The notes: generated from the sequence alone by a model not told the origin. Shown: positions 13,031 through 53,897, numbered from the stretch's first letter. The stretch is 64,000 bases of DNA from Candidatus Omnitrophota bacterium (GCA_028710685.1 JAQTTQ010000001.1:1648-65647), one strand, 5' to 3'. Numbers and translations: made by a program.

Positions 13031-13756
13031 ATGCCTAGAAAAAACAAGGATAATTACGAGATTTACGTAAAACAGATTGAAGTCTTGTCTAAGGTAGCAA
13101 ACCTGATTACTTCAGGAATGTACCTGGAGGAGCTTCTGCGCCTGATTGTCAATGTTACTGCTGAGATAATGAATTCTAAGATATCCTCTTTAATGCTCTT
13201 AGACCATGAAAAGAAAGAGTTGGTGGTGCGCGCTACTCAGTCAATCTCCGAATCTTATAATAAGAAGCCTAATATAAAGATGGGAACTGGCATAGCCGGC
13301 GAGGTTGCTTTAAATAATAAGGCTATAGTTGTGCCGGACCTTAAAAAAGACCCCCGCTATCTTAATCAGGATATCGCAAGGAAAGAAAAACTTTGTTCCC
13401 TGGCGAGCATTCCTATGGCGGTAAATGGGAAGGTTATCGGCGTGCTTAATTGTTATACTTCTAAGAAGCATGAATTTACCAAGACAGAGTTGAATCTTCT
13501 CAACGCCTTGGCAAATCAGGCAGCTATAGCTATTGAGAATGCAGAGCTAAACCTTCGAGCGCGCTCTGCGGAAGAGGCCCTTACTACGCGCAAAGTCGTA
13601 GAGAGGGCGAGGGATATTTTATCCCAGGAAGCTAACATTTTGCCTTCGGAAGCATACCGTTTAATTCAAAAACAGAGTATGGATTCCCGTAAGTCAATGC
13701 GGGAGGTAGCCGAGGCCATAATCTTGGCCAAGGATATAAAGAGTAAGAAGTATTGA
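13031..13756 (+). CDS. GAF-ANTAR protein (putative RNA-binding antiterminator with a ligand-sensing GAF domain)
   Basis: The N-terminal GAF segment includes GTGIAGEVALNNKAIVVPD. The C-terminal ANTAR segment TRKVVERARDILSQEANILPSEAYRLIQKQSMDSRKSMREVAEAII closely resembles the AmiR/NasR-type ANTAR domain. Confidence 0.75.
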   Translation: MPRKNKDNYEIYVKQIEVLSKVANLITSGMYLEELLRLIVNVTAEIMNSKISSLMLLDHEKKELVVRATQSISESYNKKPNIKMGTGIAGEVALNNKAIVVPDLKKDPRYLNQDIARKEKLCSLASIPMAVNGKVIGVLNCYTSKKHEFTKTELNLLNALANQAAIAIENAELNLRARSAEEALTTRKVVERARDILSQEANILPSEAYRLIQKQSMDSRKSMREVAEAIILAKDIKSKKY

Positions 13757-13825
13757 CAAATATAGATTTTATGTTAGACTAGTATTAGATTACGCAATGA
13801 TGCAGTAATACGCAATGACATAGAA

Positions 13826-13869
13826 GTCTTCTGGGCTTGTTAAAAAAGCCAGAAGGCTTTTTCTTTTTA
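13826..13869 (+). terminator. intrinsic terminator after the GAF-ANTAR gene
   Basis: Stem CTTCTGGGCTT/AAGCCAGAAGG with loop GTTAAAA, followed by CTTTTTCTTTTT. Confidence 0.7.
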
Positions 13870-13870
13870 C

Positions 13871-13924
13871 GGACACTGGAGTCCTCAATCCGGAATTTAT
13901 TCCGGTTGGGGGCTCTTATTTTTT
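13871..13924 (+). promoter_or_regulatory. leader of the sigma-factor gene: hexaloop hairpin overlapping a terminator-like structure
   Basis: GGAC-ACUGGA-GUCC (13871-13884) is a hexaloop hairpin. A GAGTCC (13879-13884) ... GGGCTC stem encloses the palindrome CCGGAATTTATTCCGG (13890-13905) and is followed by TTATTTTTT (13916-13924). The hexaloop hairpin and the terminator 5' arm share nucleotides. Confidence 0.45.
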
Positions 13925-13933: not shown

Positions 13934-14455
13934 ATGGAGTATGCCCGGTTATTAAAAAAACTTTTACCTAAGATAAAAGGGATAGCCTTTAAGCTAAACA
14001 GGTATTATGGGCCTTTTGCTTATGATGATTTATGCCAGGAAGCGATTATCCATCTTTGGGTTAATTTTAAAGCAGGCCGTTTAGCTGAGAAGACGCAGAG
14101 TTATATATTGCAGGGGTGCTACTTTCACCTGAGGAATTATATCCGTAAATTTAGCGAAAAAAATACCCTCTTAAGCCTGGATTCATTAATTAATGATGAT
14201 AACGAGGTAACCCTTGAAGGCCTGCTCGTTTTAGATGATGAGAGAGATTTGCGCGATGTTATGAATGATAATTTCCTGGTGGAGGCTATTGAAAATAACG
14301 GTTTTACTATAAGGGAAAAGCAGATACTTAAGTTTTATAAAAAGGGACTCACTACTAGAGAAATAGGGGGGAGGCTCAGCCTTTCTCATGTTAGAATAAT
14401 TAAGATTATGCAGAATATAAGAATTAAGTGCCGTAAATACCAGGATATTTTTTAG
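13934..14455 (+). CDS. sigma-70 family RNA polymerase sigma factor (ECF-like, region 2 plus region 4)
   Basis: The region 2-like segment DLCQEAIIHLWVNF...YILQGCYFHLRNYIRK and the region 4 HTH LTTREIGGRLSLSHVRIIKIMQNIRIKCRK. The RBS is GAGGGTAAG. Length is 173 aa. Confidence 0.75.
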   Translation: MEYARLLKKLLPKIKGIAFKLNRYYGPFAYDDLCQEAIIHLWVNFKAGRLAEKTQSYILQGCYFHLRNYIRKFSEKNTLLSLDSLINDDNEVTLEGLLVLDDERDLRDVMNDNFLVEAIENNGFTIREKQILKFYKKGLTTREIGGRLSLSHVRIIKIMQNIRIKCRKYQDIF

Positions 14456-14552
14456 TTACCAGGCTTAAGCCGTTTTTACTTGTATATATAAGACACATTG
14501 AAGTGTAATCTAATACAAAGGCGTTCCTTGATAAAGGGGCGCTATTTTTTTT
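14456..14552 (+). promoter_or_regulatory. amt leader (element A): small terminator hairpin, hexaloop hairpin and a strong intrinsic terminator before the RBS
   Basis: GGCTTAAGCC plus Ts at 14462-14476. Hairpin ACAC-AUUGAA-GUGU at 14493-14506. A 9-bp terminator stem GCGTTCCTT/AAGGGGCGC with a GATA loop, then TATTTTTTTT, at 14521-14552. The amt RBS AAGGAGGGG follows directly. The block is about 70% identical to 18495-18587. Confidence 0.55.
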
Positions 14553-14569
14553 ACATTAAGGAGGGGTTT

Positions 14570-18494: not shown

Positions 18495-18618
18495 TGTTAC
18501 CAAGCCTAGGGCTTGTTTACTTGTATATGTAGAAGGCACATAGTAGTGTAATAGTACCAGAAAGAACGAAGGCGTTCATGATAGCTGATAAATAAGCTAA
18601 AGTGAACGTCTTTTTTTT
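18495..18618 (+). promoter_or_regulatory. fis-gltBD leader (element B): paralogous copy of the amt leader with hexaloop hairpin and terminator
   Basis: AAGCCTAGGGCTT hairpin plus Ts at 18503-18518. Hairpin (G)CAC-AUAGUA-GUG(U) at 18536-18549. Alternative hairpin GAACG-AAGG-CGTTC at 18564-18577. A 9-bp terminator stem GGCGTTCAT/GTGAACGTC followed by T8, at 18571-18618. Confidence 0.55.
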
Positions 18619-18648
18619 GGTTAAGCGGTGATTAAAATTTAGGCAGAC

Positions 18649-22000: not shown

Positions 22001-23561
22001 AATATCCCCTCCTCCTCATCATGACATCTATTCGATTGAAGACTTAGCGCAGCTTATTTTTGACTTAAAGAATGCAAATCCTAAGGCGCGCATCAGCGTA
22101 AAGCTTGTCTCGGAAATGGGTGTGGGTACTGTGGCTGCTGGTGTGGCCAAGGGGCATGCAGATATGATTTTAATCTCCGCAGGAGACGGTGGCACAGGGG
22201 CCTCGCCTTTAAGTTCTATTAAATATGCGGGCCTTCCCTGGGAGCTGGGTTTATCCGAGACGCATCAGACATTGCTTCTGAATAATCTGCGCTCAAGGGT
22301 TCGTATACAGGCTGATGGCCAGATGCGTACCGGGCGGGATGTGGTTATCGCGACTTTATTGGGAGCGGAGGAATTCGGTTTTTGTTCTGCCGTATTGGTA
22401 GTAGTCGGGTGTGTAATGCTTAGGCATTGCCACTTGAATAATTGTTCCCTGGGGGTGGCTACGCAGGATGATATTCTGCAAAAAAGATTTAAGGGCAGGC
22501 CGGAGTATATAGTTAATTATTTCAATTTTGTTGCCCAGGAGATAAGAGAGATTATGAGCAGCCTTGGGATAAGGAATATGGATGAAATGGTCGGACGCTC
22601 CGATCTTCTTGAAGTAGACAAAGATAGAGTCCCCTTAAAGGCTAAAAATTTGGATTATTCCCGTATACTCTACCGTCCTTTGCTAGCTGACGGGACAGCA
22701 AGGCATTTTCAGCCTAAAAAGAATAACAGCTTAGGGCCGGTGTTAGATAACAAGCTGATTAAAGAATGTTCTGTTTCTATTAGAGAGAACAAGCCGATAG
22801 TAGTAACTAGCGGGATAAATAATGCAGATCGTTCTGTAGGCGCGATGTTAAGCGGGGAAGTATGCCGCGTCTGCGGGGATGGGGTACTTCTTGAGGATAC
22901 TCTAAGATGCCGATTTCGCGGGATAGCCGGACAGAGTTTCGGGGCTTTCTTGGCTAAGGGGATAACATTTGAGCTCGAGGGGATGAGTAACGATTATGTA
23001 GGTAAGAGTATATCCGGAGGAAAAATAATAATCTATCCTGATCGCAGCTCTTCTTTTAATCCCCATGAGAATATTATTATTGGTAATACCAGTTTCTACG
23101 GGGCAATATCAGGGGAGGCTTATATAAGCGGTTTGGCAGGGGAGCGGTTCTGCATCAGGAATTCCGGCTTATATGCGGTTGTGGAAGGAGTGGGAGATCA
23201 TGGCTGTGAATATATGACCGGGGGAAGGGTTATAATACTGGGAAGAACCGGAAGAAACTTTGCCGCAGGTATGTCCGGGGGCATAGCCTATGTTTACGAT
23301 CAGGATGGCAGCTTTAAAGATAGATGCAATATGGATATGGTGGCGCTGGATAGGATAAAGGGCGATGATTTAGATACCATATATCATCTTTTGCATAATC
23401 ATTTAAAATATGCCAAAAGCAAGAAGGCAAAGTCGATACTTGAGAATATCCACGATGAGCTTAAGTATTTTATCAAGGTAATACCTATAGAATACAAAAG
23501 AATACTTGAGGGTATTAAGATTGAGCAAAAGCTCGATTTAATGGAGAGATCTGATGGGTGA
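19011..23561 (+). CDS. gltB: glutamate synthase large subunit
   Basis: 1516 aa with the Ntn amidotransferase start (...CGVGF), FMN/Fe-S central domains and the C-terminal GXXDGG repeat domain. An alternative ATG at 19023 overlaps the fis stop. Confidence 0.9.
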   Translation: MENYMKNDNGFPLAQGLYDPRLEHDSCGVGFVCDILGRKSNGILRQGISVLNRLAHRGAVGADPKTGDGAGILIQIPHEFFAKVAQDKGIALPDPGFYASGLVFLPQNKEERQFCKDYFEEAINEHGQSLLGWRVVPTDSSDIGEGAKSTQPVFEQVFIARGKEIKSQLDFERRLYIIRRRIENIVRSSKLKQKSSFYITNISSRTFSYKGLLMPGQLDSFFIDLKDNSLKSALCLVHSRYSTNTFPTWDLAQPFRFLAHNGEINTIRGNINGVSARERLLASEFFGLDIEKLKPIIVEGGSDSAAIDNFFELLVLSGRPIDHVMMMLIPSAWEHDKLMKKELRDFYKYHACFMEPWDGPAAVAFTDGDNIAAALDRNGLRPARYIITNDNLCVMASEVGVLDIAPKDIKVSGRLEPGKIFFIDTKAGRVINDAKIKEEISQHNPYGYWLSKNLVDLDKLSGSGLPLKHKSEDLIAALKSFGYSREDLKLIIRPMAEEGKEPVGSMGNDTPHAFLSDKPQLLYNYFKQLFAQVTNPAIDSIREKLVMSLESFIGPEKNLLEETPKHSHKLRVNNPILSDEELSRIRDIGVNNFKTKTIYTFFDAGNKEDGFRMALERICFEAEYAIEQGYSFIILSDRGADRDGIALPALLATSAIHHYLVKKTIRSQVALIVESAEPREVHHFALLFGYGADCINPYLAYRAVEYLIEQKELKTDIKTALKNYNKAVTDGILKILSKMGISTLRSYRGAQIFEALGLSQDLVDRYFTGTVSRIGGVNLSGIALETILRHRQAYSARNPQNVCLPSGGVYQWKADGEFHLWNPMSIAALQAAARENNPVKYAEFAKLINDQSDNPTTLRSLFRFKAAEKVPLDEVEPVSAIMKRFVTGAMSFGSISAPAHETIAIAMNRIGGKSNTGEGGEDPNRFIALPNGDSRRSAIKQVASGRFGVTINYLINADEIQIKIAQGAKPGEGGQLPGHKVSGVIARIRYTTAGVTLISPPPHHDIYSIEDLAQLIFDLKNANPKARISVKLVSEMGVGTVAAGVAKGHADMILISAGDGGTGASPLSSIKYAGLPWELGLSETHQTLLLNNLRSRVRIQADGQMRTGRDVVIATLLGAEEFGFCSAVLVVVGCVMLRHCHLNNCSLGVATQDDILQKRFKGRPEYIVNYFNFVAQEIREIMSSLGIRNMDEMVGRSDLLEVDKDRVPLKAKNLDYSRILYRPLLADGTARHFQPKKNNSLGPVLDNKLIKECSVSIRENKPIVVTSGINNADRSVGAMLSGEVCRVCGDGVLLEDTLRCRFRGIAGQSFGAFLAKGITFELEGMSNDYVGKSISGGKIIIYPDRSSSFNPHENIIIGNTSFYGAISGEAYISGLAGERFCIRNSGLYAVVEGVGDHGCEYMTGGRVIILGRTGRNFAAGMSGGIAYVYDQDGSFKDRCNMDMVALDRIKGDDLDTIYHLLHNHLKYAKSKKAKSILENIHDELKYFIKVIPIEYKRILEGIKIEQKLDLMERSDG

Positions 23562-25014: not shown

Positions 25015-27594
25015 ATGATTAGCACCGGTATAAAAGGGTTAGATAGCGTGATTACGGGGTTAAGGCTAGGAGATAATGTAGTTTGGCAGATCGATCATAT
25101 CGATGACTATCTAGATTTGGTAAGGCCATTTGTCAGGCAGTCATTAAAAGAAGGAAGAAAAGTGGTTTATATCAGGTTTGCCGCGCACCAAGAGCTCCTT
25201 AAGCCATCCGCTAAGGTAAGGCGTTATGATTTAGACGCTAGTGCCGGATTTGAATCTTTTACTGCCAGGGTGAATAATATTATTACCGCGGAAGGGGAAG
25301 GGGCTTATTATGTGTTTGACTGTTTGTCTGAGCTGCTTTTGGCTTGGGCCACCGATCTTATGATGGGTGATTTCTTTATGCTGACTTGCCCGTATCTCTA
25401 CGAGCTTAAGACAGTAACCTACTTTTCTATTTTACGTAACAACCATTCCTTTAAGTCTATAGCGCGCATACGCGAGACGACACAATTATTGCTTGATGTG
25501 TACCGTTGCCAAGAGAGTTTTTATATCCATCCCTTAAAGGTATGGAACCGCTATTCTCCTACTATGTTTTTACCGCATTTAAGAAAGGGGGATGAGTGTA
25601 TTCCGATTACGGATAGCGTAAACGCGGCAAGGCTTTTTTCCTATATCAGGGAAAAGGGGGCAGAGAATGCCAAACGCAACCTTGATTATTGGGACCGTTT
25701 ATTTCTGGAGGCCGGCGATCTGGCAGGGAAAAACCTTCCTAAGGAGAAGGTTAAGGAAACCTTGGCAAAGTTATGCAGTATAATGATCTCTAAAAATAAG
25801 AAAATATTGGATTTGGCGATGCGAACTTTCTCGCTGGAGGAACTTATAGAAATAAAGTCACGCTTAATCGGGACCGGTTTTATCGGGGGTAAAACCGTGG
25901 GTATGCTCATCGCCAGGAAGATACTTTCGCAGAAGCTTTTAAACTGGAAAGAATTATCTGAGCCCCATGACTCTTTTTATATCGGTTCGGATATATTTTA
26001 TTCTTATATAGTCCATAACCGCTGGTGGAAACTGCATATGCAGCAGAAGACTGAAGAAGGTTATTTTAATGCGGCAAGGTTATTGAAAGAAAGGATGCTT
26101 TACGGGATATTCCCCGAAGAGATTATGGAGCATTTTCAGCAGATCATTGAATATTTCGGGTCATCGCCTATTATAATACGCTCCAGCTCACTGCTGGAGG
26201 ATGATTTTGGCAATGCCTTTGCCGGTAAATATGAGAGTATATTTCTGGCTAACCAAGGCAGTCCCGAGCAGAGGTATATACAATTTGCGGAGGCAGTTAG
26301 GAAAATTTATGCCAGCACAATGAATGAGGATGCTTTAGTTTATAGGAAGCAGAGGGGGTTGGATAAGCTGGATGAGCAGATGGCCCTTTTGGTGCAGCGT
26401 GTTTCAGGCGCTCATCATAAAGATTTTTTCTTTCCGGATTTAGCCGGGGTAGGCGTTTCATATAATACATATGTTTGGAATAACGAAATCAATCCTAAGA
26501 CAGGCATGCTGAGGGTTGTTTTCGGGTTGGGTACCAGGGCGGTTAATCGGGTGGAAGGGGATTATCCTAGGATGGTAGCTTTGTCCGATCCCCTGCGCAG
26601 GCCTTATGCGCAAAATGAGGATTTAAGAAAATATTCCCAGCATGACGTAGATGTTATAGATACAAAAGAAAACTCCCTGGCTACAATATCCTTTAATGAG
26701 CTGGCCTTAAAGAATATCTATAAAAATGTCGAAGCCTTTGCGGTTAAGGATTATGATTCGATGGATTTCATGAGTAAAAGAGGCCAGGATGGGCAATATT
26801 GGATTCTGACACTCGATAATATATTTAATGATAATAAATTGCCGGATTTTTTTAGGAAAATACTCGGGGAATTAGAGTTAAACTATGATTATCCGGTTGA
26901 AATAGAATTTACGGTTAATTTCACGGGGGATAACAAGTTTAAGATCAATCTCCTGCAGTGCCGTCCGTTACAAACATACGGCCTGGAGCGTAAGGTTAAG
27001 ATACCTAAGGCAATAAGTAAGGAGGATACCCTATTTGATTCCAGGGGTTATTTTTTAGGAGGGAATATTAACCAGAAGATAAGCTGGATTATCTATATTG
27101 ACCCTGAAAGGTACAGTAAGCTTATCCTTTCCGATAAATATGAGGTAGCCCGGATAGTAGGCAAATTAAATATATCTATTAAAAGCAGGGATGAGCTGCC
27201 TACCCTTTTAATGGGACCGGGCAGATGGGGTACAACTACGCCTTCACTGGGAGTACCGGTTAAGTTCGCCGAGATAAATAATGTAGCGGCCCTTGCTGAG
27301 ATTGCTTTTTCATCCGGAAATTTAATGCCGGAGTTATCATTCGGTACCCATTTTTTTCAGGATTTGGTAGAAACAAATATATTTTACGCAGCCCTATTCC
27401 CCGGCAGGAAGGAAGTCATTTTCAATAAAAAATGGTTTGATAAGAACAGGAATCTGTTTACTGATCTTATCCCCGAGTCGGCAAAATACGAAGATGTAAT
27501 CGGGGTATATGATGTAAGCGAAAAAAACTTTAAGATTATTTCGGAGGTAGTTTCGCAGAGAGTTGTTTGTTTTGCTCAAGGGTTTACTAATTGA
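25015..27594 (+). CDS. PEP/pyruvate-binding (PPDK_N ATP-grasp-like) domain protein with an N-terminal degenerate KaiC/RecA-like domain
   Basis: The N-terminus GIKGLDSVITGLRLGDNVVWQ resembles the KaiC/RadA start but has no Walker A motif. A central segment GTGFIGGKTVGMLIARKIL resembles the PEP-synthase/PPDK nucleotide-binding domain. No His swivel motif was seen. The RBS is AAAGAGGAG. Confidence 0.5.
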   Translation: MISTGIKGLDSVITGLRLGDNVVWQIDHIDDYLDLVRPFVRQSLKEGRKVVYIRFAAHQELLKPSAKVRRYDLDASAGFESFTARVNNIITAEGEGAYYVFDCLSELLLAWATDLMMGDFFMLTCPYLYELKTVTYFSILRNNHSFKSIARIRETTQLLLDVYRCQESFYIHPLKVWNRYSPTMFLPHLRKGDECIPITDSVNAARLFSYIREKGAENAKRNLDYWDRLFLEAGDLAGKNLPKEKVKETLAKLCSIMISKNKKILDLAMRTFSLEELIEIKSRLIGTGFIGGKTVGMLIARKILSQKLLNWKELSEPHDSFYIGSDIFYSYIVHNRWWKLHMQQKTEEGYFNAARLLKERMLYGIFPEEIMEHFQQIIEYFGSSPIIIRSSSLLEDDFGNAFAGKYESIFLANQGSPEQRYIQFAEAVRKIYASTMNEDALVYRKQRGLDKLDEQMALLVQRVSGAHHKDFFFPDLAGVGVSYNTYVWNNEINPKTGMLRVVFGLGTRAVNRVEGDYPRMVALSDPLRRPYAQNEDLRKYSQHDVDVIDTKENSLATISFNELALKNIYKNVEAFAVKDYDSMDFMSKRGQDGQYWILTLDNIFNDNKLPDFFRKILGELELNYDYPVEIEFTVNFTGDNKFKINLLQCRPLQTYGLERKVKIPKAISKEDTLFDSRGYFLGGNINQKISWIIYIDPERYSKLILSDKYEVARIVGKLNISIKSRDELPTLLMGPGRWGTTTPSLGVPVKFAEINNVAALAEIAFSSGNLMPELSFGTHFFQDLVETNIFYAALFPGRKEVIFNKKWFDKNRNLFTDLIPESAKYEDVIGVYDVSEKNFKIISEVVSQRVVCFAQGFTN

Positions 27595-27650
27595 CAGTTT
27601 CTTAAACTATGCTATACTTACAAATAGTTCAAGGGAGAACTCAAGAGTTT

Positions 27651-27701
27651 AAACAATGGCGTTTAAGGGCCGTTCCATCGGCATTAAACGCCTTTTTGTT
27701 T
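27651..27701 (+). promoter_or_regulatory. pyrG leader: hexaloop hairpin overlapping an intrinsic terminator (candidate attenuator)
   Basis: AAAC-AAUGGC-GUUU (27651-27664). A 9-bp terminator stem GGCGTTTAA (27658-27666) / TTAAACGCC (27685-27693) with a structured loop, followed by TTTTTGTTT. The two structures are mutually exclusive. Confidence 0.5.
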
Positions 27702-27705
27702 CTAA

Positions 27706-29330
<1,625 letters not shown>

Positions 29331-29331
<1 letters not shown>

Positions 29332-30416
29332 TGGAGGCGATGCTTGTATTGGAAGACGGGAGTATATTTAGGGGAAGGTCTTTTGGCTCAAGCGGAGAAA
29401 GATACGGCGAGGTTGTATTTAATACTGCGATGAGCGGTTACCAGGAAATAATTACCGACCCTTCCTATAAGGGCCAGATTGTCGTAATGACCTACCCGTT
29501 GATAGGCAATTACGGAGTCAGTAGGGAAGATGTAGAATCGCGTAAGCCATTTCTAGAAGCATTTGTGGTAAGGGAGTGCAGCAGGATAGCCAGTAACTGG
29601 CGTTCGATGGATAACTTGCAGGGATATCTGAAAGCGAATAATATTATGGGCCTTGAGGGTATCGATACCAGGGCGCTTACTTTACTCATACGCAAGTCCG
29701 GTTCGATGAAGGCAGTTTTATCTACCTTAGACCTCGATGCTACAAGTTTAATTAATAAGGTAAGGTTATCGCCTTCTCTTCTGGGGGTGGATTTAGTTAA
29801 AGAAGTGACTATAGGCAAGCAATACGTCTGGTCGCATATTAAGAGCAAGAAATATAAGGTAGTAGTTATTGATTGCGGCTTAAAATACAATATTCTGCGT
29901 AAACTGATGGGTGTAGGATGCGAGGCCTTGGTAATGCCCGCAAACGTAAGTGCCCAAGAGATACTTAAAAGAAGGCCGCAGGGCGTGCTTATCTCCAACG
30001 GTCCGGGAGACCCCGCTGCAGTAAATTATGTAGTTAATACCACCGAGAAACTGCTTGGCAGAATTCCTATTTTCGGTATATGTTTAGGGCATCAGATACT
30101 CGCCCTTGCCTTAGGGGGTAAGACCTACAAGTTAAAATTCGGGCACCATGGCGCCAACCATCCGGTAAAAGAATTAAAAACCGGCAAGATAATGATAACC
30201 TCTCAAAATCATAATTTCTGCGTAGATATCGAGTCATTAAATAAAAAAGAGATAGAGATGACCCATATTAATCTAAACGATTCTACTCTTGAGGGTATGA
30301 GGCATAAAAGGTTTCCGGTATTATCGGTGCAATTCCATCCTGAGGCTTCCCCTGGGCCTCACGACGCAGATTATTTATTTCTAGAGTTTACCAAAATGAT
30401 GAGAAAATATGCCTAA
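29331..30416 (+). CDS. carA: carbamoyl-phosphate synthase small (glutaminase) subunit
   Basis: N-terminus [11 protein letters not shown], the GATase catalytic segment GICLGHQ and a 361-aa length. Confidence 0.9.
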
Positions 30417-32055
30417 GCGCAAAGATATAAAGAAAATACTTATTATAGGCTCCGGGCCTATTGTTATAGGACAGGCATGCGAATTTGATTACTCCGGGAC
30501 TCAGGCCTGCAAGGCCTTAAGAAGAGAAGGTTTCAGGGTGGTCTTGGTAAATTCCAATCCCGCAACAATTATGACTGATCCCCAGACAGCAGATATTACT
30601 TATATTGAGCCCATAACTGCGGATATACTTGAAAAGATAATTGCTAAAGAGCGTCCCGATGCGCTTCTTCCCACCTTGGGGGGGCAGACAGCTTTGAATG
30701 CCGCAGTAGAATTGGCAGAGCGGGGGGTATTAAAAAAGTATAATGTTGAGACTATCGGCGCCAATATAAAGGCTATAAAAAAGGGCGAGGATAGGCAGTT
30801 GTTTAAAGAGGCGATGAAGAAGATCGGGATTGACCTCCCTAAGAGCGGTAAGGCCTATACCCTGAAAGAGGCTATTGATGTAGCCTTGAAGATAGGCTTT
30901 CCTTTAATTATAAGGCCTAGTTTTACCTTAGGGGGAAGAGGCGGAAGTATGGCCTATAATATGGAAGAATTCAAAGAATTAGCCAAATATGGATTAGAGT
31001 CAAGCATGATCAGTGAAATACTTATTGAAGAATCAGTAGCGGGTTGGAAGGAATTTGAGCTGGAGGTCATGCGGGACAAGAAGGATAATGTCGTGGTTAT
31101 TTGTTCCATAGAAAATCTTGATCCTATGGGGGTGCATACGGGAGATAGTATAACCGTGGCCCCTGCGCAGACTCTTACCGATAAAGAATACCAGAAGATG
31201 CGCGACAGTGCACTTGCCTGCATCAGGGAGATAGGCGTTGAGACCGGAGGTTCGAATATCCAGTTTGCCGTTAATCCTAAGACAGGGAGATTGGTGGTGA
31301 TAGAGATGAATCCGAGGGTATCAAGGTCATCGGCCTTGGCTTCAAAGGCAACGGGGTTTCCTATCGCCAAGATTGCGGCAAAATTGGCCGTAGGTTATAC
31401 GTTAGATGAGATACCTAACGATATAACCTTAAAGACTCCTTCTTGTTTTGAGCCGGTTATTGATTATTGCGTGGTGAAGATTCCCCGTTTTACTTTCGAG
31501 AAATTTCCTTCTGCCCAAAAAGAGCTGACTGTATCTATGAAATCGGTGGGAGAGGTGATGGCTATAGGAAGGACTTTTAAGGAGGCCCTGCAAAAAGCGC
31601 TGCGTTCTCTGGAATTAGGTTTTTCTGGGTTAGACGATTTAAAATATCAACCTAGCGACGATGAGTTAAGAAACAACCTGAGGATGCCTAATGATTTAAG
31701 GATCTTTTATATAAAGGAGGCATTAAAAAGGGGGTATAGCCCGGCAGAGATTAATAACCTGACCCAGATAGACCTGTGGTTTCTGGAGAACATTAAAGAG
31801 ATCGTGGGCTTAGAAGAAGAGATTAGGCTAAAAATGAAGATAGGCGATGAAATAGATTCGGTTGAGTTGTTAAGGAAGGCGAAGGAATTCGGTTTTTCTG
31901 ATTTACAGATTTCCAGGCTTTTGGGAAAAGATGCTAATAGTATAAGGAAGTGGAGGATGGAGAAGGGCATAAAACCGGAATATAAGCTGGTGGATACTTG
32001 TGCCGCTGAGTTTGAGGCATTCACGCCTTATTATTATTCAGCTTATGAGGGATAA
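30409..32055 (+). CDS. carB: carbamoyl-phosphate synthase large subunit, N-terminal half only (split carB)
   Basis: [26 protein letters not shown] start and one ATP-grasp unit plus the oligomerisation region. The protein ends at 548 aa and the next gene is purF, so the second half must be encoded elsewhere. Confidence 0.85.
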
Positions 32056-32057
32056 TT

Positions 32058-33434
32058 ATGTGCGGAATATTCGGGGTTTATCCCCACAGAGACGCTAGTA
32101 AACTTACCTATTTAGGGCTTTATAGCCTGCAGCACCGCGGTGAGGAGTCAGCGGGTATAGTAAGCAATAATGGCAGGAAGGTTTTTCTGCATAAGGGGAT
32201 GGGCCTGGTAAGCGATGTCTTTGATGAAAGGTCTATTTCTGGACTGCGCGGGGAACTTGCCATAGGCCATGTGCGTTATTCTACAACCGGAAGCAGCAAT
32301 ATAAAGAATATCCAGCCATTTTTAGTGAAGTCAAAAATGGGGAATATTGCTATAGCCCATAACGGTAATCTTATAAACGCCCTTTTCTTACGCCGGCAGA
32401 TGGAGGAGAAGGGCTCTATATTCCAGACCACCATGGATTCAGAGGTGATATCCCACCTTCTTGCTCATAGCCCGAAGAAAGATGTTAAGGAGGCGATGGT
32501 CTGGGCGTTAAGCCAGCTTAAGGGAGCGTATTCTTTAATCTTGATGGTCAATGATATGATCGTAGGGGCAAGGGACACCTTTGGCTGGAGGCCGCTTTGT
32601 TTGGGCAAATTCGACGGAGCTTATATCTTGGCTAGCGAAACCTGTTCTTTGGATTTGATAGGCGCCGAATACATAAGGGATATTGAGCCCGGAGAGATAG
32701 TATTTATTAGCAAGGATAGGTTTGAGTCAATAAAGCCGTTTGAGAGAACGCCTTGCGCTTTTTGTATATTTGAATTTATCTATTTTGCCCGGCCGGATAG
32801 TAATATTTTCGGATGTAATGTATATGGCTGCCGTAAGGCTTTAGGGAGGCAGCTGGGGAAAGAATTCCCGGTACCGGCAGATATCGTAATGCCTATACCT
32901 GATTCCGGGACCTCCGCGGCCCTGGGTTTTACTGAAGCAACTAATATTCCTTATGAAACAGGATTGATCCGTAACCATTATATCGGGCGCACCTTTATTC
33001 AACCAAGCCAGTTAGTCCGTGATTTCCGGGTTAAGATAAAGTTAAATCCGGTTAGGGAAGTTTTAAGGGATAAGCGCGTAATTGTTATTGAGGATTCTAT
33101 CGTGCGCGGGACAACCAGCCGAGCCAGGGTTAAGGCAATCAGGGAGGCGGGGGCAAAAGAGATACATATGCGGGTTAGTTGCCCTCCTTTGAGGTTCCCC
33201 TGTTTTTACGGCATAGACTTTCCTACAAAAAAAGAATTAATCGCCTCTAACCACAGCATCCAATGGATACGCGATTTTATCGGGGTTGATAGCCTTGAAT
33301 ACTTAAGTCTTAAGGGTATGCTGGATTCGATCCCCTGCAAAAAAGATAATTTCTGCACTGCCTGTTTTACCGGGGAATATCCGGTTAAACCTTCCTTTGG
33401 TCTTTCAAAGAAGTCCCTGGAGAGGCGTAAGTGA
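32058..33434 (+). CDS. purF: amidophosphoribosyltransferase
   Basis: MCGIFGV N-terminal nucleophile, a PRTase fold and a C-terminal Cys cluster. Confidence 0.9.
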   Translation: MCGIFGVYPHRDASKLTYLGLYSLQHRGEESAGIVSNNGRKVFLHKGMGLVSDVFDERSISGLRGELAIGHVRYSTTGSSNIKNIQPFLVKSKMGNIAIAHNGNLINALFLRRQMEEKGSIFQTTMDSEVISHLLAHSPKKDVKEAMVWALSQLKGAYSLILMVNDMIVGARDTFGWRPLCLGKFDGAYILASETCSLDLIGAEYIRDIEPGEIVFISKDRFESIKPFERTPCAFCIFEFIYFARPDSNIFGCNVYGCRKALGRQLGKEFPVPADIVMPIPDSGTSAALGFTEATNIPYETGLIRNHYIGRTFIQPSQLVRDFRVKIKLNPVREVLRDKRVIVIEDSIVRGTTSRARVKAIREAGAKEIHMRVSCPPLRFPCFYGIDFPTKKELIASNHSIQWIRDFIGVDSLEYLSLKGMLDSIPCKKDNFCTACFTGEYPVKPSFGLSKKSLERRK

Positions 33435-33575
33435 GATAAGACCTTGACAAGGGATTTTATTTTTGTTATCGTTAAAGTTGTTATTCGGCATCCATCCGTA
33501 TATTTAAGATGCGCCTGTTATAGTCCCAACATAAAGTAAATAGGCAGATAGGCATAATAATCTAAGGGGGAGTTT

Positions 33576-34202
33576 ATGTTTTCTTTCATTGTAAAGGGCG
33601 GACCAGTTATGCTGCCGATTATTTTAGGTTCTGTAATCGGCCTGGCTATTGTTATTGAGAGATTCTGGGTTTTTAGGGAGATGAGGCTTAATACCTTTGA
33701 TTTTATCCAGTCAGTTTTCCGTAACATTAAGGAAGGGAAGATTAAAGAGGCGCTTTTTGTTTGCGACAAATTTATACATCATCCTTTAGGGGTAATATTC
33801 AAGATAGGCATAGAAAGAAGGAATTTGCCGTTAGAGAGGCTGGAGAAGGTCTTAGAGCAGGCCGGGAATAATCAGATACAAAAGCTGGAGAAGTACTTGG
33901 GGGCCTTAGTTACGATAGTCGGCATTGAGCCGCTTTTAGGGTTTTTAGGCACGATTACAGGGTTAATCCGCGCATTTATGTCCTGGGAGCAGGCAGGCGC
34001 GAATGTTACCGTCAGCGTATTGGCTGCGGGTATTTATGAGGCGATGCTTACTACCGCCGCAGGGTTGATTGTGGCAATCCCGCTTTATCTATGCTACAAT
34101 TATTTTATAAGCCGCATTAAATCTGTATCTAACGAACTCTCCAATCATTGTATTCAGCTCCTTGAGGTTATCGCAGAGACAAAAGAAGGAAAGGGTGTAT
34201 GA
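33576..34202 (+). CDS. MotA/TolQ/ExbB-family proton channel
   Basis: Three TM helices and the conserved C-terminal TM pair (IEPLLGFLGTITGLIRAF). Confidence 0.8.
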   Translation: MFSFIVKGGPVMLPIILGSVIGLAIVIERFWVFREMRLNTFDFIQSVFRNIKEGKIKEALFVCDKFIHHPLGVIFKIGIERRNLPLERLEKVLEQAGNNQIQKLEKYLGALVTIVGIEPLLGFLGTITGLIRAFMSWEQAGANVTVSVLAAGIYEAMLTTAAGLIVAIPLYLCYNYFISRIKSVSNELSNHCIQLLEVIAETKEGKGV

Positions 34203-34621
34203 AGATAGCCGGGCGCCGGGCTCACCTAGAGAAAATGGAATCAGTGGTGATGACGGACATCATTTTGAATATGTTCATTTTCTTCTTTATCTCCTTTAGC
34301 CTCCTTTACACCTTCAGCCCCTATCGTATAAAGAAGCTTGAGGTAAGGCTTCCGGAGGCAGCCTCTGCCAGGCCATTAGAGGGGAAGGGGCAGGTAAATA
34401 TCACTATAAATAATGAGGGGGTTATTTATCTTGACCAGGAGCATGTGGCTAAGAAATCTTTACGCGAGAAGATCTCCAAGCGGTATACACAGAATCCGGG
34501 GTTAGGCGTTATCCTAAGTTCTGACAGGTTGGTGCGTTTTAAGGATATAGTGGATGTGCTGGATATATTAAATGCCGTAGGCATTAAGAATCTTAATATT
34601 GCGGCAACCAGCGAAAAATAA
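34199..34621 (+). CDS. ExbD/TolR-family protein
   Basis: A single N-terminal TM helix followed by a periplasmic domain, overlapping the exbB-like gene. The true start may be an internal ATG. Confidence 0.7.
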   Translation: MKIAGRRAHLEKMESVVMTDIILNMFIFFFISFSLLYTFSPYRIKKLEVRLPEAASARPLEGKGQVNITINNEGVIYLDQEHVAKKSLREKISKRYTQNPGLGVILSSDRLVRFKDIVDVLDILNAVGIKNLNIAATSEK

Positions 34622-34627
34622 TCTTTC

Positions 34628-34738
34628 TTGACAAAAATTGTAATAGTGTTATTATTTAATCTCAATATTAGTTTTGAGGACAATGGCGTCCATTCTTTAC
34701 CGTTATTTATATAATTACGGAAGGAGTGGGCGTTTTTT
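34628..34738 (+). promoter_or_regulatory. nfnA leader: promoter, hexaloop hairpin and a terminator-like structure
   Basis: TTGACA (34628-34633), 16-nt spacer, TATTAT (34650-34655). Hairpin GGAC-AAUGGC-GUCC (34678-34691). An 8-bp stem GTCCATTC (34688-34695) / GAGTGGGC (34724-34731) with an inner hairpin, then G plus TTTTTT (34733-34738). The hairpin and terminator overlap. A perfect inverted repeat GCCTAAGAATTAGGC (34752-34766) abuts the RBS. Confidence 0.5.
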
Positions 34739-34774
34739 ATTCTCAAGGGATGCCTAAGAATTAGGCAGAAGGTT

Positions 34775-35599
34775 ATGAAAATACTAAGCAAGGAAGTGTT
34801 AAGCGATTTTCAGGGGGTAAGGGTTATCAGCATGGAGATTTTTGCCCCGAAAATTGCCTTAAAGGCTAAGCCCGGGCAGTTTATCGCGCTTATGGTAAAT
34901 AAGGACGGTGAGAGGGTGCCTTTAACCATAGTAAGCACGGGAAATGACTCTATAAGAATTATCTTTCAGGAAGCAGGTTTTACTACCAGGCTCTTGGGAA
35001 GGCTTAATCTCCAGGATACCCTTTATGCTATAGTCGGGCCTCTTGGCCATGCAACCGATATCAAGCGTTTCGGCAAAGTAATTCTGGTCGGAGGAGGGGT
35101 AGGCATTGCCGAGATTTATCCGGTAGCAAAGGCCTTAAAAGAAGCGGGAAATAATGTTACCGGTATTCTTGGTGCAAGGACCAGGGATCTGCTTATCCTT
35201 GAGAATGAATTAAGGGAGGCCTCGAGCCAGTTGTTTGTGGCAACGGATGACGGGTCTTACCAGAGAAAGGGCTTTGTTACCGATATATTAAAAGAATTAC
35301 TAGAAAAAGATAAATATGATTTGGTTTATTCGGTAGGCCCGATTCCGATGATGAAGAGGGTTGCGCAGGTCACTAAGGGTTTTAAGGTTAAGACTATTGT
35401 TTCCCTGAATGCGTTAATGGTGGATGCAACCGGTATGTGCGGATGCTGCCGGGTTACGGTCTCAGGGCAAACAAAATTCAGCTGTATCGACGGCCCGGAG
35501 TTTGAGGCGCAGGAGATAGACTGGGAGGAGCTAACCCAGAGAAACCGGGTCTATCAGGATAAAGAAAAGCATATCTGTAATCTTAATAAGTTATTCTAA
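34775..35599 (+). CDS. nfnA: NfnA/SudB-type small subunit (PyrK-like FAD/[2Fe-2S] ferredoxin-NADP+ reductase subunit)
   Basis: PyrK-like fold with a C-terminal Cys cluster CGCCRVTVSGQTKFSC, 274 aa, paired with a GltD-like subunit. Confidence 0.75.
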   Translation: MKILSKEVLSDFQGVRVISMEIFAPKIALKAKPGQFIALMVNKDGERVPLTIVSTGNDSIRIIFQEAGFTTRLLGRLNLQDTLYAIVGPLGHATDIKRFGKVILVGGGVGIAEIYPVAKALKEAGNNVTGILGARTRDLLILENELREASSQLFVATDDGSYQRKGFVTDILKELLEKDKYDLVYSVGPIPMMKRVAQVTKGFKVKTIVSLNALMVDATGMCGCCRVTVSGQTKFSCIDGPEFEAQEIDWEELTQRNRVYQDKEKHICNLNKLF

Positions 35600-35607
35600 G
35601 GTAAACT

Positions 35608-37038
35608 ATGCCAAAACCGGCGGTTAAAACAAAAGAAGTCCCTGCTTGTGAGAGAATCTTAGGTTTCTCAGAGGTCACCTGCGGGTATACGCAGGAAGAA
35701 GCCATTTTAGAAGCATCACGCTGCCTGCAGTGCAAAGACCCCAAGTGTATACCCGGTTGCCCGGTAGGGATAAATATCAAGCAGTTTATAAAACAGGTTA
35801 CGCAAAAAGATTTTGCCGGGGCCTATTATACTATCAGGGAAAAGAATAATTTTCCATGCATCTGCGGGAGAGTTTGCCCTGCGGAATACCAGTGCAGAAA
35901 GGCCTGTGTTTTAACAAAAAAAGATTCGCCATTTGCCAGCGCGGATTCCATAAATATACATTTTATTGAGAGGTTTGTCGGCGATTTCGGGATGAAAAAC
36001 GGTTTAAAGGTAAATATTATCCCCGATGAAAAAATCTCCGGGCATAAAGTTGCGGTTGTAGGCTCCGGGCCTGCCGGATTATGCTGCGCAGGAGAGTTAG
36101 CGCGTTTGGGGGTTAAGGTTACGGTCTTTGAGGCGTTGCATAAAAACGGAGGGGTATTAAGATATGGTATCCCGCCCTTTAGGATGCCGCGCGATATACT
36201 TGACTTCGAGATAAATTACCTGAAAAGCTTAGGCGTTGAGATCCTGCCGAATTTTATTGTAGGCAAGACTAACGATTTAGCGGATTTGTTTAAAGAAGGT
36301 TTTTCTGCGGTTTTTTTAGGTTTGGGTGCAGGGGTTCCTTCCTTTCTCGGTATTGCGGGAGAGAACCTTTGTAATGTTTATTCGGCAAATGAATTCCTGA
36401 CCAGGGTTAACCTTATGTCCGCATATGAGTTTCCTAAAGCCCATACTCCCGTTAATATAGGCAAGCATATCTTAGTGGTAGGCGGGGGGAATACGGCAAT
36501 GGATGCCGCGCGTTGTGCTTTAAGGCTGCAAAAGATGAATAATATTGAGCCTGATACTACTATTGTTTATAGGAGGACAGAGGTAGAGATGCCTGCCCGC
36601 AGGCTTGAGATAGAGCATGCCAAGGAAGAAGGCGTTAAGTTTAAGATGCTGGTCAGCCCGCAAGAGTTTAAGGGTGATGATTCCGGTTTTGTAAAGGTCT
36701 TAAAATCTTTGGAGTGTAAATTAGGGCAGCCGGATGCCTCTGGCAGAAGGAGGCCGGTTGCTATCGAGGGAAGCGATTTTGAAATTGAATGCGATCTGGC
36801 TATTATCGCCATAGGGCTTAAGGCGAATCAGGTTTTAACCAGCGTAACCCCGGAAATCAAAACAGATAAATATTCGGATGTAATAGTTAATCCTCAAACT
36901 ATGGAGACTTCTATGAGAGGGGTATTTGCCGGAGGCGACATAGTCGGAGGGGAAGGGACAGTGATTGAGGCAATGGGCATGGCTAAGAAGGCAGCCCTTG
37001 CAATTAAGGATTATTTGTATCAGTTACCTATTAAATAA
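35608..37038 (+). CDS. nfnB: NfnB/SudA-type large subunit (GltD-like NADPH oxidoreductase with two [4Fe-4S] clusters)
   Basis: CLQCKDPKCIPGCP and CICGRVCPAEYQCRKAC clusters. The FAD/NAD segment VAVVGSGPAGLCCAGEL. Length is 476 aa. Confidence 0.8.
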   Translation: MPKPAVKTKEVPACERILGFSEVTCGYTQEEAILEASRCLQCKDPKCIPGCPVGINIKQFIKQVTQKDFAGAYYTIREKNNFPCICGRVCPAEYQCRKACVLTKKDSPFASADSINIHFIERFVGDFGMKNGLKVNIIPDEKISGHKVAVVGSGPAGLCCAGELARLGVKVTVFEALHKNGGVLRYGIPPFRMPRDILDFEINYLKSLGVEILPNFIVGKTNDLADLFKEGFSAVFLGLGAGVPSFLGIAGENLCNVYSANEFLTRVNLMSAYEFPKAHTPVNIGKHILVVGGGNTAMDAARCALRLQKMNNIEPDTTIVYRRTEVEMPARRLEIEHAKEEGVKFKMLVSPQEFKGDDSGFVKVLKSLECKLGQPDASGRRRPVAIEGSDFEIECDLAIIAIGLKANQVLTSVTPEIKTDKYSDVIVNPQTMETSMRGVFAGGDIVGGEGTVIEAMGMAKKAALAIKDYLYQLPIK

Positions 37039-37062
37039 TTTAAATTTAAGGAGGTGGGGTAG

Positions 37063-38400
37063 ATGTCGGTAAAAATCGAAGAGTTTATGAATAATGTGAT
37101 AAGTAAGAACCCCAATGAGGCTGAATTCCATCAGGCAGTCAGGGAGGTCGTAGAATCGGTGCTTCCCTTTATCGAAGAAAATCCTAAGTACCTTAAGGCT
37201 AAAATATTAGAGAGAATGGTTGAGCCTGAAAGGACTATTATTTTCCGCACTCCCTGGCTTGATGATAAAGGAGAGATTCAGGTTAGCCGAGGTTACCGTA
37301 TAGAGATGAACAGCGCAATCGGGCCTTATAAGGGCGGTTTACGTTTTCATCCCAGCGTAAACTTAGGTATCTTGAAATTCTTGGCTTTTGAGCAGGTTTT
37401 TAAGAATGCGTTGACTACTCTGCCTATGGGCGGAGGCAAAGGGGGGTCAGATTTTGACCCTAAGGGGAAGTCGGATAACGAGGTGATGAGGTTTTGCCAG
37501 AGTTTTATGGTTGAGCTCTCCAGGCATATAGGCCCTAATACAGATGTCCCTGCCGGTGATATCGGGGTGGGCGGCCGCGAAATAGGCTATATGTTCGGCC
37601 AGTATAAAAGATTACGCAATGAATTTACCGGCGTTTTAACCGGCAAAGGATTAAACTGGGGAGGAAGTCTTATTCGTCCGGAGGCTACGGGATACGGCTG
37701 TGTATATTTTGTTGAAGAAATGCTTAAGACAAGGGGAGAGTCTCTTAAGGGTAAGGTTTGCGCCGTCTCCGGATCGGGTAATGTTGCCCAGTATACTGTA
37801 GAGAAACTGCTTCAGTTGGGGGCAAAGGTAGTAACGCTTTCTGACTCTGACGGATTTATCTATGATGGTGAAGGCATCGACCAGAAAGAGCTGAAGTGCG
37901 TTTTGAATTTAAAGAATGTTAAGCGCGGCCGCATAAAGGAATGCGCGAAGGAATTTAAGTGCGATTATTTCGATAAGCAAAAGCCCTGGTCGATAAAATG
38001 CGACGTAGCTTTCCCCAGCGCAACGCAAAATGAAATAGATGAGCAGGATGCAAAAACCCTGGTTAAAAACGGTTGTCTTGCTATAGGGGAAGGGGCGAAT
38101 ATGCCTACTACGCCCTCCGGAGTTGAAATCTTTCAGAAGGCTAAGATTCTTTATGCCCCGGGTAAGGCGTCTAATGCCGGAGGCGTGGCTACTTCCGGGT
38201 TAGAGATGTCCCAGAACAGTATGCGCCTTTCCTGGTCGCGCGAGGAGGTAGACAGAAAATTGCATGATATAATGGTGGCCATACATGAGCAGTGTGTTAA
38301 GTACGGTAAAGAAGACGGTTATATCAACTACGTTAAAGGAGCAAATATCGCCGGATTTGTTAAGGTTGCCGATGCCATGATTGACCAGGGAATAGTCTGA
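37063..38400 (+). CDS. gdhA: NADP-specific glutamate dehydrogenase
   Basis: Typical GdhA N-terminus (EAEFHQAVREVVESV), GGGKGG and the catalytic lysine region. Length is 445 aa. Confidence 0.9.
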   Translation: MSVKIEEFMNNVISKNPNEAEFHQAVREVVESVLPFIEENPKYLKAKILERMVEPERTIIFRTPWLDDKGEIQVSRGYRIEMNSAIGPYKGGLRFHPSVNLGILKFLAFEQVFKNALTTLPMGGGKGGSDFDPKGKSDNEVMRFCQSFMVELSRHIGPNTDVPAGDIGVGGREIGYMFGQYKRLRNEFTGVLTGKGLNWGGSLIRPEATGYGCVYFVEEMLKTRGESLKGKVCAVSGSGNVAQYTVEKLLQLGAKVVTLSDSDGFIYDGEGIDQKELKCVLNLKNVKRGRIKECAKEFKCDYFDKQKPWSIKCDVAFPSATQNEIDEQDAKTLVKNGCLAIGEGANMPTTPSGVEIFQKAKILYAPGKASNAGGVATSGLEMSQNSMRLSWSREEVDRKLHDIMVAIHEQCVKYGKEDGYINYVKGANIAGFVKVADAMIDQGIV

Positions 38401-53595: not shown

Positions 53596-53668
53596 GGGCC
53601 TCTAGCTCATCCGGTAGAGCAGCGGCTTTTTAAGCCGCGTGTGCCGAGTTCGAGTCTCGGGAGGCTCA
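53596..53668 (+). tRNA. tRNA-Lys (anticodon TTT)
   Basis: Cloverleaf folded by hand. Acceptor GGGCCTC/GAGGCTC, D stem GCTC/GAGC, anticodon stem GCGGC/GCCGC with loop TTTTTAA, T stem CCGAG/CTCGG. Length is 73 nt. Confidence 0.85.
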
Positions 53669-53749
53669 TATATTTGTTACCGAGGTGATGATCCCCTTGC
53701 AAGTCTTAGCGGGGGGACTCGCTCCTTTTAAGTAAGCGCAGGGAGCTCG

Positions 53750-53764
53750 GTCTCGGGAGGCTCA
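53750..53764 (+). repeat. direct repeat of the 3' end of tRNA-Lys (tRNA fragment)
   Basis: TCTCGGGAGGCTCA at 53750-53764 matches 53654-53668 (the T-arm 3' half plus acceptor 3' strand). No matching 5' half is present. Confidence 0.5.
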
Positions 53765-53792
53765 ATAAATATATCAGCGGCAAGAGGAAATA

Positions 53793-53877: not shown

Positions 53878-53897
53878 AAGAATATTTCAAAAATCAT

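Follow-up and report, generated by a model that had tools for sequence, protein, structure and literature searches.

A predicted ANTAR-target antiterminator in the leader of the pyrG-carA-carB-purF operon of a Candidatus Omnitrophota bacterium

The leader of the pyrG-carA-carB-purF operon was analysed in a 64,000-nucleotide (nt) stretch of DNA from Candidatus Omnitrophota bacterium (GCA_028710685.1 JAQTTQ010000001.1:1648-65647), hereafter the window, with positions counted from its first letter. A preliminary description, made from the sequence alone, had proposed that this leader holds an attenuator sharing a hexaloop hairpin with the leader of an nfnA-like gene further downstream. Comparison with published sites indicates that the pyrG leader is probably an ANTAR-target dual-hairpin antiterminator and not a new kind of attenuator. 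Read in this way, the RNA is a further member of the known ANTAR family, in a phylum where this family has not been described before.

The substrate of ANTAR proteins consists of two tandem hairpins of at least 3 base pairs (bp) with hexaloops whose first base is A and whose fourth is G (A1/G4), a linker of variable length, and a second hairpin (P2) that overlaps an intrinsic terminator (Ramesh et al. 2012, PMC3369931). For EutV, the closing pairs and the first and fourth bases of the loops were shown to matter, and the linkers span 5-12 nt in the Enterococcus faecalis eut leaders (Ramesh et al. 2012, PMC3369931), while linkers of 2-25 nt were accepted in actinobacteria, together with a covariance cut-off of at least 15 bits (Mehta et al.). 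The pyrG leader satisfies the hairpin, hexaloop, linker and P2/terminator-overlap features of such a substrate, and its elements are as follows.

27591-27618, + strand: promoter TTGACA-16-TG-n-TATACT, matching sigma-70 at 11 of 12 positions, with a TG extension
27626-27641, + strand: first hairpin (P1), AGUUC-AAGGGA-GAACU, 5 bp, A1/G4 hexaloop, -3.7 kcal/mol, present in the minimum-free-energy fold
27642-27647, + strand: linker CAAGAG, 6 nt
27648-27667, + strand: P2, UUUAAAC-AAUGGC-GUUUAAG, 7 bp, A1/G4 hexaloop, -3.2 kcal/mol, containing the 10-mer ACAATGGCGT
27658-27692, + strand, with a U-tract to 27701: intrinsic terminator GGCGUUUAA..GCCG......CGGC.UUAAACGCC followed by UUUUUGUUU, -19.9 kcal/mol

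The -35 hexamer of the promoter overlaps the TGA stop codon of the upstream PPDK_N-domain gene, and transcription is predicted to start at about 27625. Together with the nfnA promoter, this promoter is one of the two best matches in the region (26500-36000). The terminator shares positions 27658-27666 with P2, comprising loop positions 4-6 and the P2 3' arm, so that the two structures are mutually exclusive in the folding model, with the terminator far more stable. Given -3.2 kcal/mol for P2 against -19.9 kcal/mol for the terminator, termination would be the default, and a protein would be needed to hold P2. The folding z-score of the whole leader is -2.6. The span originally described, 27651-27701, took in the hexaloop hairpin and the terminator and missed P1.

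Potential ANTAR sites were then scored with a covariance model built from 30 published ANTAR sites only, mostly from Firmicutes, which avoids circularity. The whole window was scanned on both strands with filters off, and the five best matches were the following.

27626-27664: rank 1, 17.9 bits, E 0.017; pyrG leader, full-length, with P1 and P2 in the register drawn by hand
23491-23534: rank 2, 15.2 bits, E 0.075; coding region, with a 13-nt loop insertion, taken as false
18535-18577: rank 3, 13.9 bits, E 0.16; gltB leader
34677-34701: rank 4, 12.6 bits, E 0.31; nfnA leader, with one hairpin aligned
14492-14525: rank 5, 11.5 bits, E 0.59; amtB leader

This model also aligned the hairpin at 27626-27641 as P1. 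Four of the five top matches fall within leader sequence that totals about 500 nt, in a scan of 128,000 strand positions, and corresponding leaders in relatives were matched as well. The second-ranked match is in the 3' end of gltB, just ahead of where gltD starts, with 13 additional nt in loop 1 and a shortened loop 2. When the full motif (P1, P2 and terminator) was written as a descriptor, only the four leaders were matched in the window; a loose dual-hairpin scan and the descriptor with an RNAfold terminator test were too permissive in GC-rich loci for a regulon to be reconstructed and usable only inside the AT-rich window. In addition, the seed alignment of Ramesh et al. has ACAAUGGCGU, letter for letter, at the top of P1 in the eutP and eutG sites of E. 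faecalis. Another model, built from six leaders of the amtB/gltB type, matched its own kind only, was dominated by primary sequence, and was dropped.

The 10-mer ACAATGGCGT was reproduced at the exact coordinates first reported for both leaders, 27653-27662 and 34680-34689 on the + strand, and neither strand of the 64-kb window has a further exact copy. Both copies have the same layout, with AC at the end of the 5' arm, the hexaloop AAUGGC, and GU at the start of the 3' arm. In the pyrG and nfnA leaders alike, the 5' arm of the terminator starts at loop positions G4-G5-C6 and the 3' arm, which agrees with the placement originally given. A search with one mismatch resulted in three matches against 2.5 expected, a bare count that is not significant; the third match is ACAAAGGCGT at 14515 on the + strand, in the amtB leader. 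The looser 9-mer C[AG]A.GGCGT gave four matches (amtB 14516, gltB 18567, pyrG 27654 and nfnA 34681, all on the + strand) against 2.1 expected, which is likewise not above expectation. All four 9-mer matches and the match at 14515 are on the + strand, within 5' leaders and directly 5' of an intrinsic terminator, and it is because of these positions in leaders, not because of the counts, that the occurrences are non-random.

If the small hairpins were incidental, the element could be an unregulated terminator or leaky attenuator, with 27658-27701 ending or dampening the transcripts from gltBD and the PPDK_N-domain gene and local transcripts. The strength of the terminator and the lack of a separate terminator for the upstream gene before the pyrG promoter would suit such a role, as would three relatives (L001, L082 and L085) that keep the terminator without a clear P1 and P2. 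We nevertheless regard this explanation as unlikely, as a near-consensus promoter running into a terminator situated 24 nt ahead of the start codon would be senseless without a mechanism of relief, the P1/P2 pair outscores every other position of the window against published ANTAR sites, and the design is repeated at four other nitrogen operons. The preliminary description had itself allowed that the hairpin might simply be the terminator of the upstream gene, with the pyrG promoter behind it. That arrangement is not the one seen in the sequence, since a strong predicted promoter lies 5' of the hairpin and the promoter scan found no promoter-like site in the 24 nt that separate the terminator from the ATG.

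The predicted antiterminator design, with a hairpin laid over a terminator, recurs in the window, where at least five leaders including that of pyrG were identified. The other four, preceding amtB-glnB-glnA, an HTH_8 gene with gltBD, an open reading frame (ORF) with similarity to sigma factors, and the nfnA-like gene, are as follows.

13754-13872, + strand: leader A, before the sigma-like ORF (13934-14455), promoter TTGACA-16-TAGACT; P1 ..GC-AAUGAU-GC.. at 13789-13809; P2 GAC-AUAGAA-GUC at 13817-13828; terminator at 13822-13861 with a U-run
14493-14553, + strand: leader B, before amtB-glnB-glnA (type III), 11.5 bits; P1 ACAC-AUUGAA-GUGU at 14493-14506; P2 AC-AAAGGC-GU at 14515-14524; terminator at 14520-14543 with U8
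18536-18621, + strand: leader C, before the HTH_8 gene and gltB-gltD, 13.9 bits; P1 GCAC-AUAGUA-GUGU at 18536-18549; P2 GAAC-GAAGGC-GUUC at 18564-18577; terminator at 18568-18613 with U8
34628-34738, + strand: leader E, before the nfnA-like, gltA(nfnB)-like and gdhA genes (34775-38400), 12.6 bits; promoter TTGACA-16-TATTAT at 34628-34655, 11 of 12 positions with a TG extension; P2 GGAC-AAUGGC-GUCC at 34678-34691; long terminator at 34685-34734 with U6

The terminator overlaps P2 in all five leaders, and A1 and G4 are both present in 8 of their 10 hexaloops, the exceptions being the gltB P2, which has G1 and G4, and the nfnA P1. Linkers measure 6 nt for pyrG, 8 nt for amtB, 14 nt for gltB and 7 nt for leader A; for nfnA the value is 0 or 22 nt, depending on the choice of P1. 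The start codon of amtB is probably the ATG at 14570, and an orthologue of leader A in L161 shows a compensatory change in the terminator. What was first described as an attenuator shared by pyrG and nfnA is therefore correct in that both have the hexaloop hairpin over a terminator, with two amendments: only P2 is canonical in nfnA, and such leaders number at least five, not two.

Two candidates for the nfnA P1 were found. The first, CUCAA-UAUUAGUU-UUGAG at 34661-34678, is inside the predicted transcript and has an 8-nt loop and no linker; the second, GUAAU-AGUGUU-AUUAU at 34640-34655, overlaps the -10 element and would be present only in read-through RNA from exbD. The UUGAG segment (34674-34678) can pair with CUCAA at 34661-34665 or with a second CUCAA at about 34742-34746, after the U-tract, and the minimum-free-energy fold uses the downstream copy, extending the base of the terminator across the U-tract.

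That the operon makes CTP and precursors of pyrimidines and purines could point to nucleotide-specific attenuation, either by PyrR binding or by CTP/UTP-sensitive reiterative transcription or pausing, and the P1 region of L089, UUUCAGAGAGGAUU, is loosely similar to a PyrR binding loop. A search with the PyrR family, however, gave no match at E<=10 in 27560-27760 or in L089 9840-10010, and the window as a whole had no match at the gathering threshold; a lead from the stretch CAGAGAGG of L089 was rejected for the same reason. In reiterative transcription of the Bacillus subtilis pyrG type, a G-run at the transcript start is extended and pairs with a pyrimidine stretch in the 5' arm of the terminator. 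The start region predicted here, ACAAAUAG, located 7-8 nt after TATACT, has no G-run, and the terminator has no complement of one. The motif is also found before amtB and gltB, genes without a link to pyrimidines, and a nucleotide-specific mechanism is very improbable. The preliminary description had already argued against a pyrimidine-specific mechanism, and the results (no PyrR site, no riboswitch and no G-run at the start) sustain it. A small-molecule riboswitch formed by the leader itself, for example one sensing glutamine, would account for the alternative pairing that overlaps the terminator, as this is also typical of transcriptional riboswitches. Searching Rfam 15 resulted in only three tRNAs at the gathering threshold in the window, what the pyrG and nfnA leaders gave at E<=10 was noise, and no conserved core is seen outside the two hairpins of 4-7 bp. 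The sister leaders share loop and closing-pair features only, so a protein site fits better than a ligand pocket, and a riboswitch is scarcely credible.

Relatives were examined for conservation of the predicted antiterminator. The closest genome in GTDB is an Omnitrophota metagenome-assembled genome (L001), with 74% PyrG identity, and it is the sole close relative among the species representatives; more distant GTDB Omnitrophota have the usual kdsB-pyrG arrangement without the leader. Metagenome contigs with 72-79% PyrG identity form two groups, one in which pyrG has its own leader and one in which it is linked to gltBD. In the former, four relatives (L081, L088, L089 and L090) have a pyrG P2 of the form AAAC-(A/G)AnGGC-GUUU, with U, A or G at loop position 3 and the terminator kept. 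In the latter (L084, L086, L002 and L098), pyrG and/or carAB lie in a gene string with gltB, gltD and the PPDK_N-domain gene and have no leader of their own, which is evidence, separate from the RNA motif, for co-regulation with glutamate synthase. The apex of the pyrG terminator (27669-27682), (G)CCG-nnCUAU-CGG(C), is kept in sequence in L081, L082, L088, L089 and L090, a conservation that exceeds what the tip of a terminator needs.

Contigs of relatives that encode a GAF-ANTAR protein contain many more leaders of the same design, which precede amtB, glnA (types I and III), a gene for an amino-acid permease/P-II fusion and a glutamate-synthase-like gene. The GAF-ANTAR gene is itself preceded by a leader of this type in L005 and L082. 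Some relatives have tandem attenuators, in which one leader holds two or three successive hairpin-over-terminator units; these and an adjacent pair of GAF-ANTAR paralogues in L082 were noted at L082 6405-8059, L162 12413-12599, and L164 12417-12653 and 13190-13399. Across 12 related leaders, 77.8% of P2 was paired, compared with 71.1 +/- 3.2% after shuffling and at most 52.8% after sliding, and AU<->GC exchanges at the two pairs next to the closing pairs amounted to 10 double changes versus 5.2 +/- 1.6 (4/500 shuffles), in a sample of few and related sequences with an imperfect MAFFT alignment. The closing pairs of P2 are A-U in 12/12 and C-G in 11/12 of these leaders. Overall, the covariation is supportive, not decisive.

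A candidate regulator is encoded about 14 kb upstream of the pyrG leader, within the same nitrogen cluster.

13031-13756, + strand: GAF-ANTAR one-component protein, 241 amino acids (aa), Pfam GAF_2 1e-23, ANTAR PF03861 3.5e-16

The ANTAR region of this protein has counterparts in Rv1626, in an E. faecalis response regulator (6wsh) and in NasR, and the nearest solved GAF domains include those of the NifA-like Nlh1/Nlh2, NifA and PtsP. A homology search resulted in 6441 proteins at E<=1e-10; the best 120 of these are 79-95% identical, and among them every one with a source name is from Omnitrophota. By a rough comparison across different databases, this degree of conservation is unusual, as the nearest PyrG sequences found are only 72-79% identical. 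The gene order AsnC - aminotransferase - GAF-ANTAR - (nadE) - sigma-like - amtB - P-II - glnA is syntenic in relatives. From its co-location and synteny, the neighbouring GAF-ANTAR protein is likely the partner of the pyrG leader. The signal may well be nitrogen status, a call we hold at about even confidence from the content of the regulon and the nearest solved GAF domains; that the GAF ligand would be 2-oxoglutarate or glutamine is a guess by analogy with the GAF domains of NifA and PtsP.

Another trans-acting factor might use the same hairpins, the candidates being a different RNA-binding protein, an ANTAR paralogue with its gene beyond the window, or a small RNA. The GAF-ANTAR protein is tied to the leaders by co-location and family knowledge only, and paralogues do exist, as L082 has two GAF-ANTAR paralogues in tandem. 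Such a factor is distinctly unlikely, however, as the RNA has the shape recognised by ANTAR domains, all relatives examined have the GAF-ANTAR gene in synteny with the regulated genes, and no second ANTAR domain was found in the window when all main-strand ORFs of at least 100 aa were scanned. The two paralogues of L082 are adjacent, and the second has a leader of its own.

With the GAF-ANTAR protein as partner, the proposed switch would operate as follows. Transcription would begin at about 27625 from the strong sigma-70 promoter, and by default the nascent RNA would form P1 and then the terminator, resulting in an RNA of about 75 nt that ends near 27697 and in little operon mRNA. In the active state, an ANTAR-domain dimer would bind both hexaloops (A1/G4 of AAGGGA and AAUGGC) and their closing pairs and stabilise the weak P2, which would sequester GGCGUUUAAG from the terminator. 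With the terminator blocked, RNA polymerase would read into pyrG-carA-carB-purF. The same protein would act on the sister leaders of amtB-glnB-glnA, gltBD and the sigma-like gene, and less canonically on that of nfnA-gltA-gdhA, by which glutamine-consuming nucleotide synthesis would be co-regulated with nitrogen assimilation. Co-regulation by nitrogen or glutamine status, suggested from the outset, gains support by inference from the sister leaders at amtB-glnB-glnA and gltBD and from the ANTAR gene in the cluster.

Several observations weigh against the assignment to the ANTAR family or to this regulator. Taken one by one, the E-values from the model of published sites are marginal (0.017 to 0.59), which follows from the shortness of the motif (39 positions), and a match in a coding region ranks second. 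Leader A was not recovered by this model, and the dropped model, of the amtB/gltB type, missed both the pyrG and the nfnA leader. In 94 kb of pyrG loci from outside Omnitrophota, the model of published sites gave two matches of at least 11.5 bits, both of which reached 14 bits, a density about one quarter that of the window, a difference of which base composition may explain part. The nfnA leader lacks a canonical P1, the terminator is kept without clean P1/P2 hairpins in L001, L082 and L085, and P1 loops of 5 or 7 nt occur in L088, L005 and L082. When P1 and P2 were evaluated together over eight pyrG leaders, of which L088, L001, L082 and L085 are misaligned, 66.7% was paired versus 61.8 +/- 3.1% (39/500 shuffles). 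Control of amtB/glnA and gdhA by one activator is not the pattern of model organisms, and another ANTAR protein encoded elsewhere in the genome could be the true partner. Binding, termination and read-through at the pyrG leader are predicted.

The operon behind the predicted antiterminator spans 27721-33434, with genes that overlap or lie 2 nt apart.

27721-29331, + strand: pyrG, CTP synthase, NCBIfam 865 bits
29331-30416, + strand: carA, carbamoyl-phosphate synthase small subunit, NCBIfam 510 bits
30409-32055, + strand: carB N-terminal half, carbamoyl-phosphate synthase large subunit residues 1-547 only by NCBIfam, 548 aa
32058-33434, + strand: purF, PurF, NCBIfam 533 bits

These assignments uphold the identities first given to pyrG, carA, carB and purF, although carB had been counted among the glutamine amidotransferases and is the synthetase half. 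The C-terminal half of carB was not found among the window ORFs scanned. In L001, L002, L008 and L098, a second half, 35-37% identical, adjoins the first half of carB, whereas here purF follows directly. As annotated with NCBIfam and Pfam, about 25 kb around the operon form a nitrogen-assimilation cluster, with the following genes.

Upstream part: NAD synthase, AsnC-family regulator, aminotransferase, GAF-ANTAR protein, 173-aa sigma-like ORF
Middle: amtB, P-II, type III glutamine synthetase, small HTH_8 protein, gltB, gltD, PPDK_N-domain protein
End: pyrG operon, tolQ/exbD, nfnA-like/gltA(nfnB)-like pair, gdhA

The PPDK_N-domain protein (25015-27594) has 859 aa and only this ATP-grasp-like domain, and it is kept between gltD and pyrG/carA in L002, L084, L086, L091 and L098. 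Further away, downstream of a tRNA cluster (53596-53970), the window encodes an EIIA_2-type (PtsN-like) protein of the phosphotransferase system (54000-54470) and an Enzyme I homologue without a GAF domain (55988-57718), which may be a remnant of a nitrogen-type phosphotransferase system.

A second kind of shared element was noticed in the cluster. The bipartite sequence TTACCA-N14-TTACTTGTA, which can also be read as TTACCA-N17-CTTGTA, occurs at 14452-14486 and 18497-18527, about 10 nt upstream of P1 in the amtB and gltB leaders. In relatives (L161, L162 and L164) it is located, with constant spacing, before amtB, glnA1, an ORF of no assigned function and a permease/P-II gene. In its place, the leaders of pyrG, nfnA and the sigma-like gene have sigma-70 promoters of the ordinary kind. 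By its sequence, TTACCA-N17-CTTGTA looks like a promoter for an alternative sigma factor. The 173-aa ORF (13934-14455) has sub-threshold matches to Sigma70_r2 and GerE/region 4 and adjoins the GAF-ANTAR gene in relatives too; it may be the sigma factor for these promoters, giving a feed-forward cascade.

Taken further, the GAF-ANTAR protein could be the master one-component nitrogen regulator of this lineage, an extension that we put forward tentatively and consider doubtful as a whole. The GAF domain would read 2-oxoglutarate or glutamine directly, antitermination would span uptake, the glutamine synthetase-glutamate synthase route, glutamate dehydrogenase and the glutamine-consuming entry steps to pyrimidines, purines and CTP, and a feed-forward arm, formed by the ANTAR-controlled sigma-like factor, would act at the TTACCA-N17-CTTGTA promoters of amtB, gltB and glnA. 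If true, this would be an RNA-level replacement for nitrogen control of the NtrBC, GlnR or TnrA type, extending into nucleotide metabolism. Confirmation of the narrower proposal would provide a first candidate regulon of the GAF-ANTAR class, whose RNA site can be tested, and a case in which a single RNA-binding protein balances glutamine supply against the largest biosynthetic drains in an uncultured phylum with small genomes. It would also provide a compact protein-dependent terminator switch in several natural variants of graded strength.

Literature searches for GAF-ANTAR, for ANTAR with Omnitrophica and for ANTAR with pyrG returned nothing relevant, and no report of pyrG, carAB or purF in an ANTAR regulon was found in the literature searched. 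Within that literature, two points appear to be new: a concrete regulon for the uncharacterised GAF-ANTAR class, and an ANTAR nitrogen regulon that takes in CTP synthase, carbamoyl-phosphate synthase and PurF. The mechanism itself is not new, as predicted or demonstrated nitrogen regulons of the ANTAR type date back to 2010-2012.

Among known systems, the eut leaders controlled by EutV in E. faecalis have, like the pyrG leader, dual hairpins with A1/G4 hexaloops, a short linker and P2 over the terminator (PMC3369931). They differ in that AC-AAUGGC-GU is located in P1 there and in P2 here, that the regulator is a phospho-receiver protein with a histidine kinase instead of a GAF sensor, and that ethanolamine catabolism in Firmicutes is controlled instead of biosynthetic nitrogen and nucleotide genes in Omnitrophota. 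In the GnfK/GnfR system of Geobacter sulfurreducens (Ueki & Lovley 2010, PMC2995071), an ANTAR protein relieves leader terminators of a nitrogen regulon, its conserved site CAGGCAANGGCGCC likewise places an AANGGC hexaloop over the terminator, and GnfR is part of a regulatory cascade, as is proposed here. Unlike the protein proposed here, GnfR belongs to the response regulators, is produced from sigma-54 promoters under GnfL/GnfM and targets nif genes; glnB is not under antitermination, and no nucleotide-biosynthesis genes were reported (PMC2995071). Predicted ANTAR leaders in Desulfotomaculum acetoxidans/reducens and Pelobacter carbinolicus precede genes for P-II, ammonium transporter, glutamine synthetase and glutamate synthase, several of them in a single genome; pyrG, carAB and purF are absent from the main text and the supplementary tables searched of the same study, which calls GAF-ANTAR proteins uncharacterised (Ramesh et al. 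2012, PMC3369931). NasR, which acts on the nasF leader of Klebsiella oxytoca, is a one-component sensor-ANTAR protein with the same dual-hairpin logic and a first hairpin of GCGCC-AAUGGC-GGCGC; it differs in sensing nitrate and nitrite with a NIT domain and in controlling a single operon. In the pyr and pyrG systems of B. subtilis, a leader terminator upstream of pyrimidine genes is relieved by an alternative structure, as would be the case here, and both PyrR and CTP-sensitive reiterative transcription read pyrimidine nucleotides. The pyrG leader of the window differs from them in having neither a PyrR site nor a G-run at the start and in carrying a motif common to nitrogen-assimilation operons.

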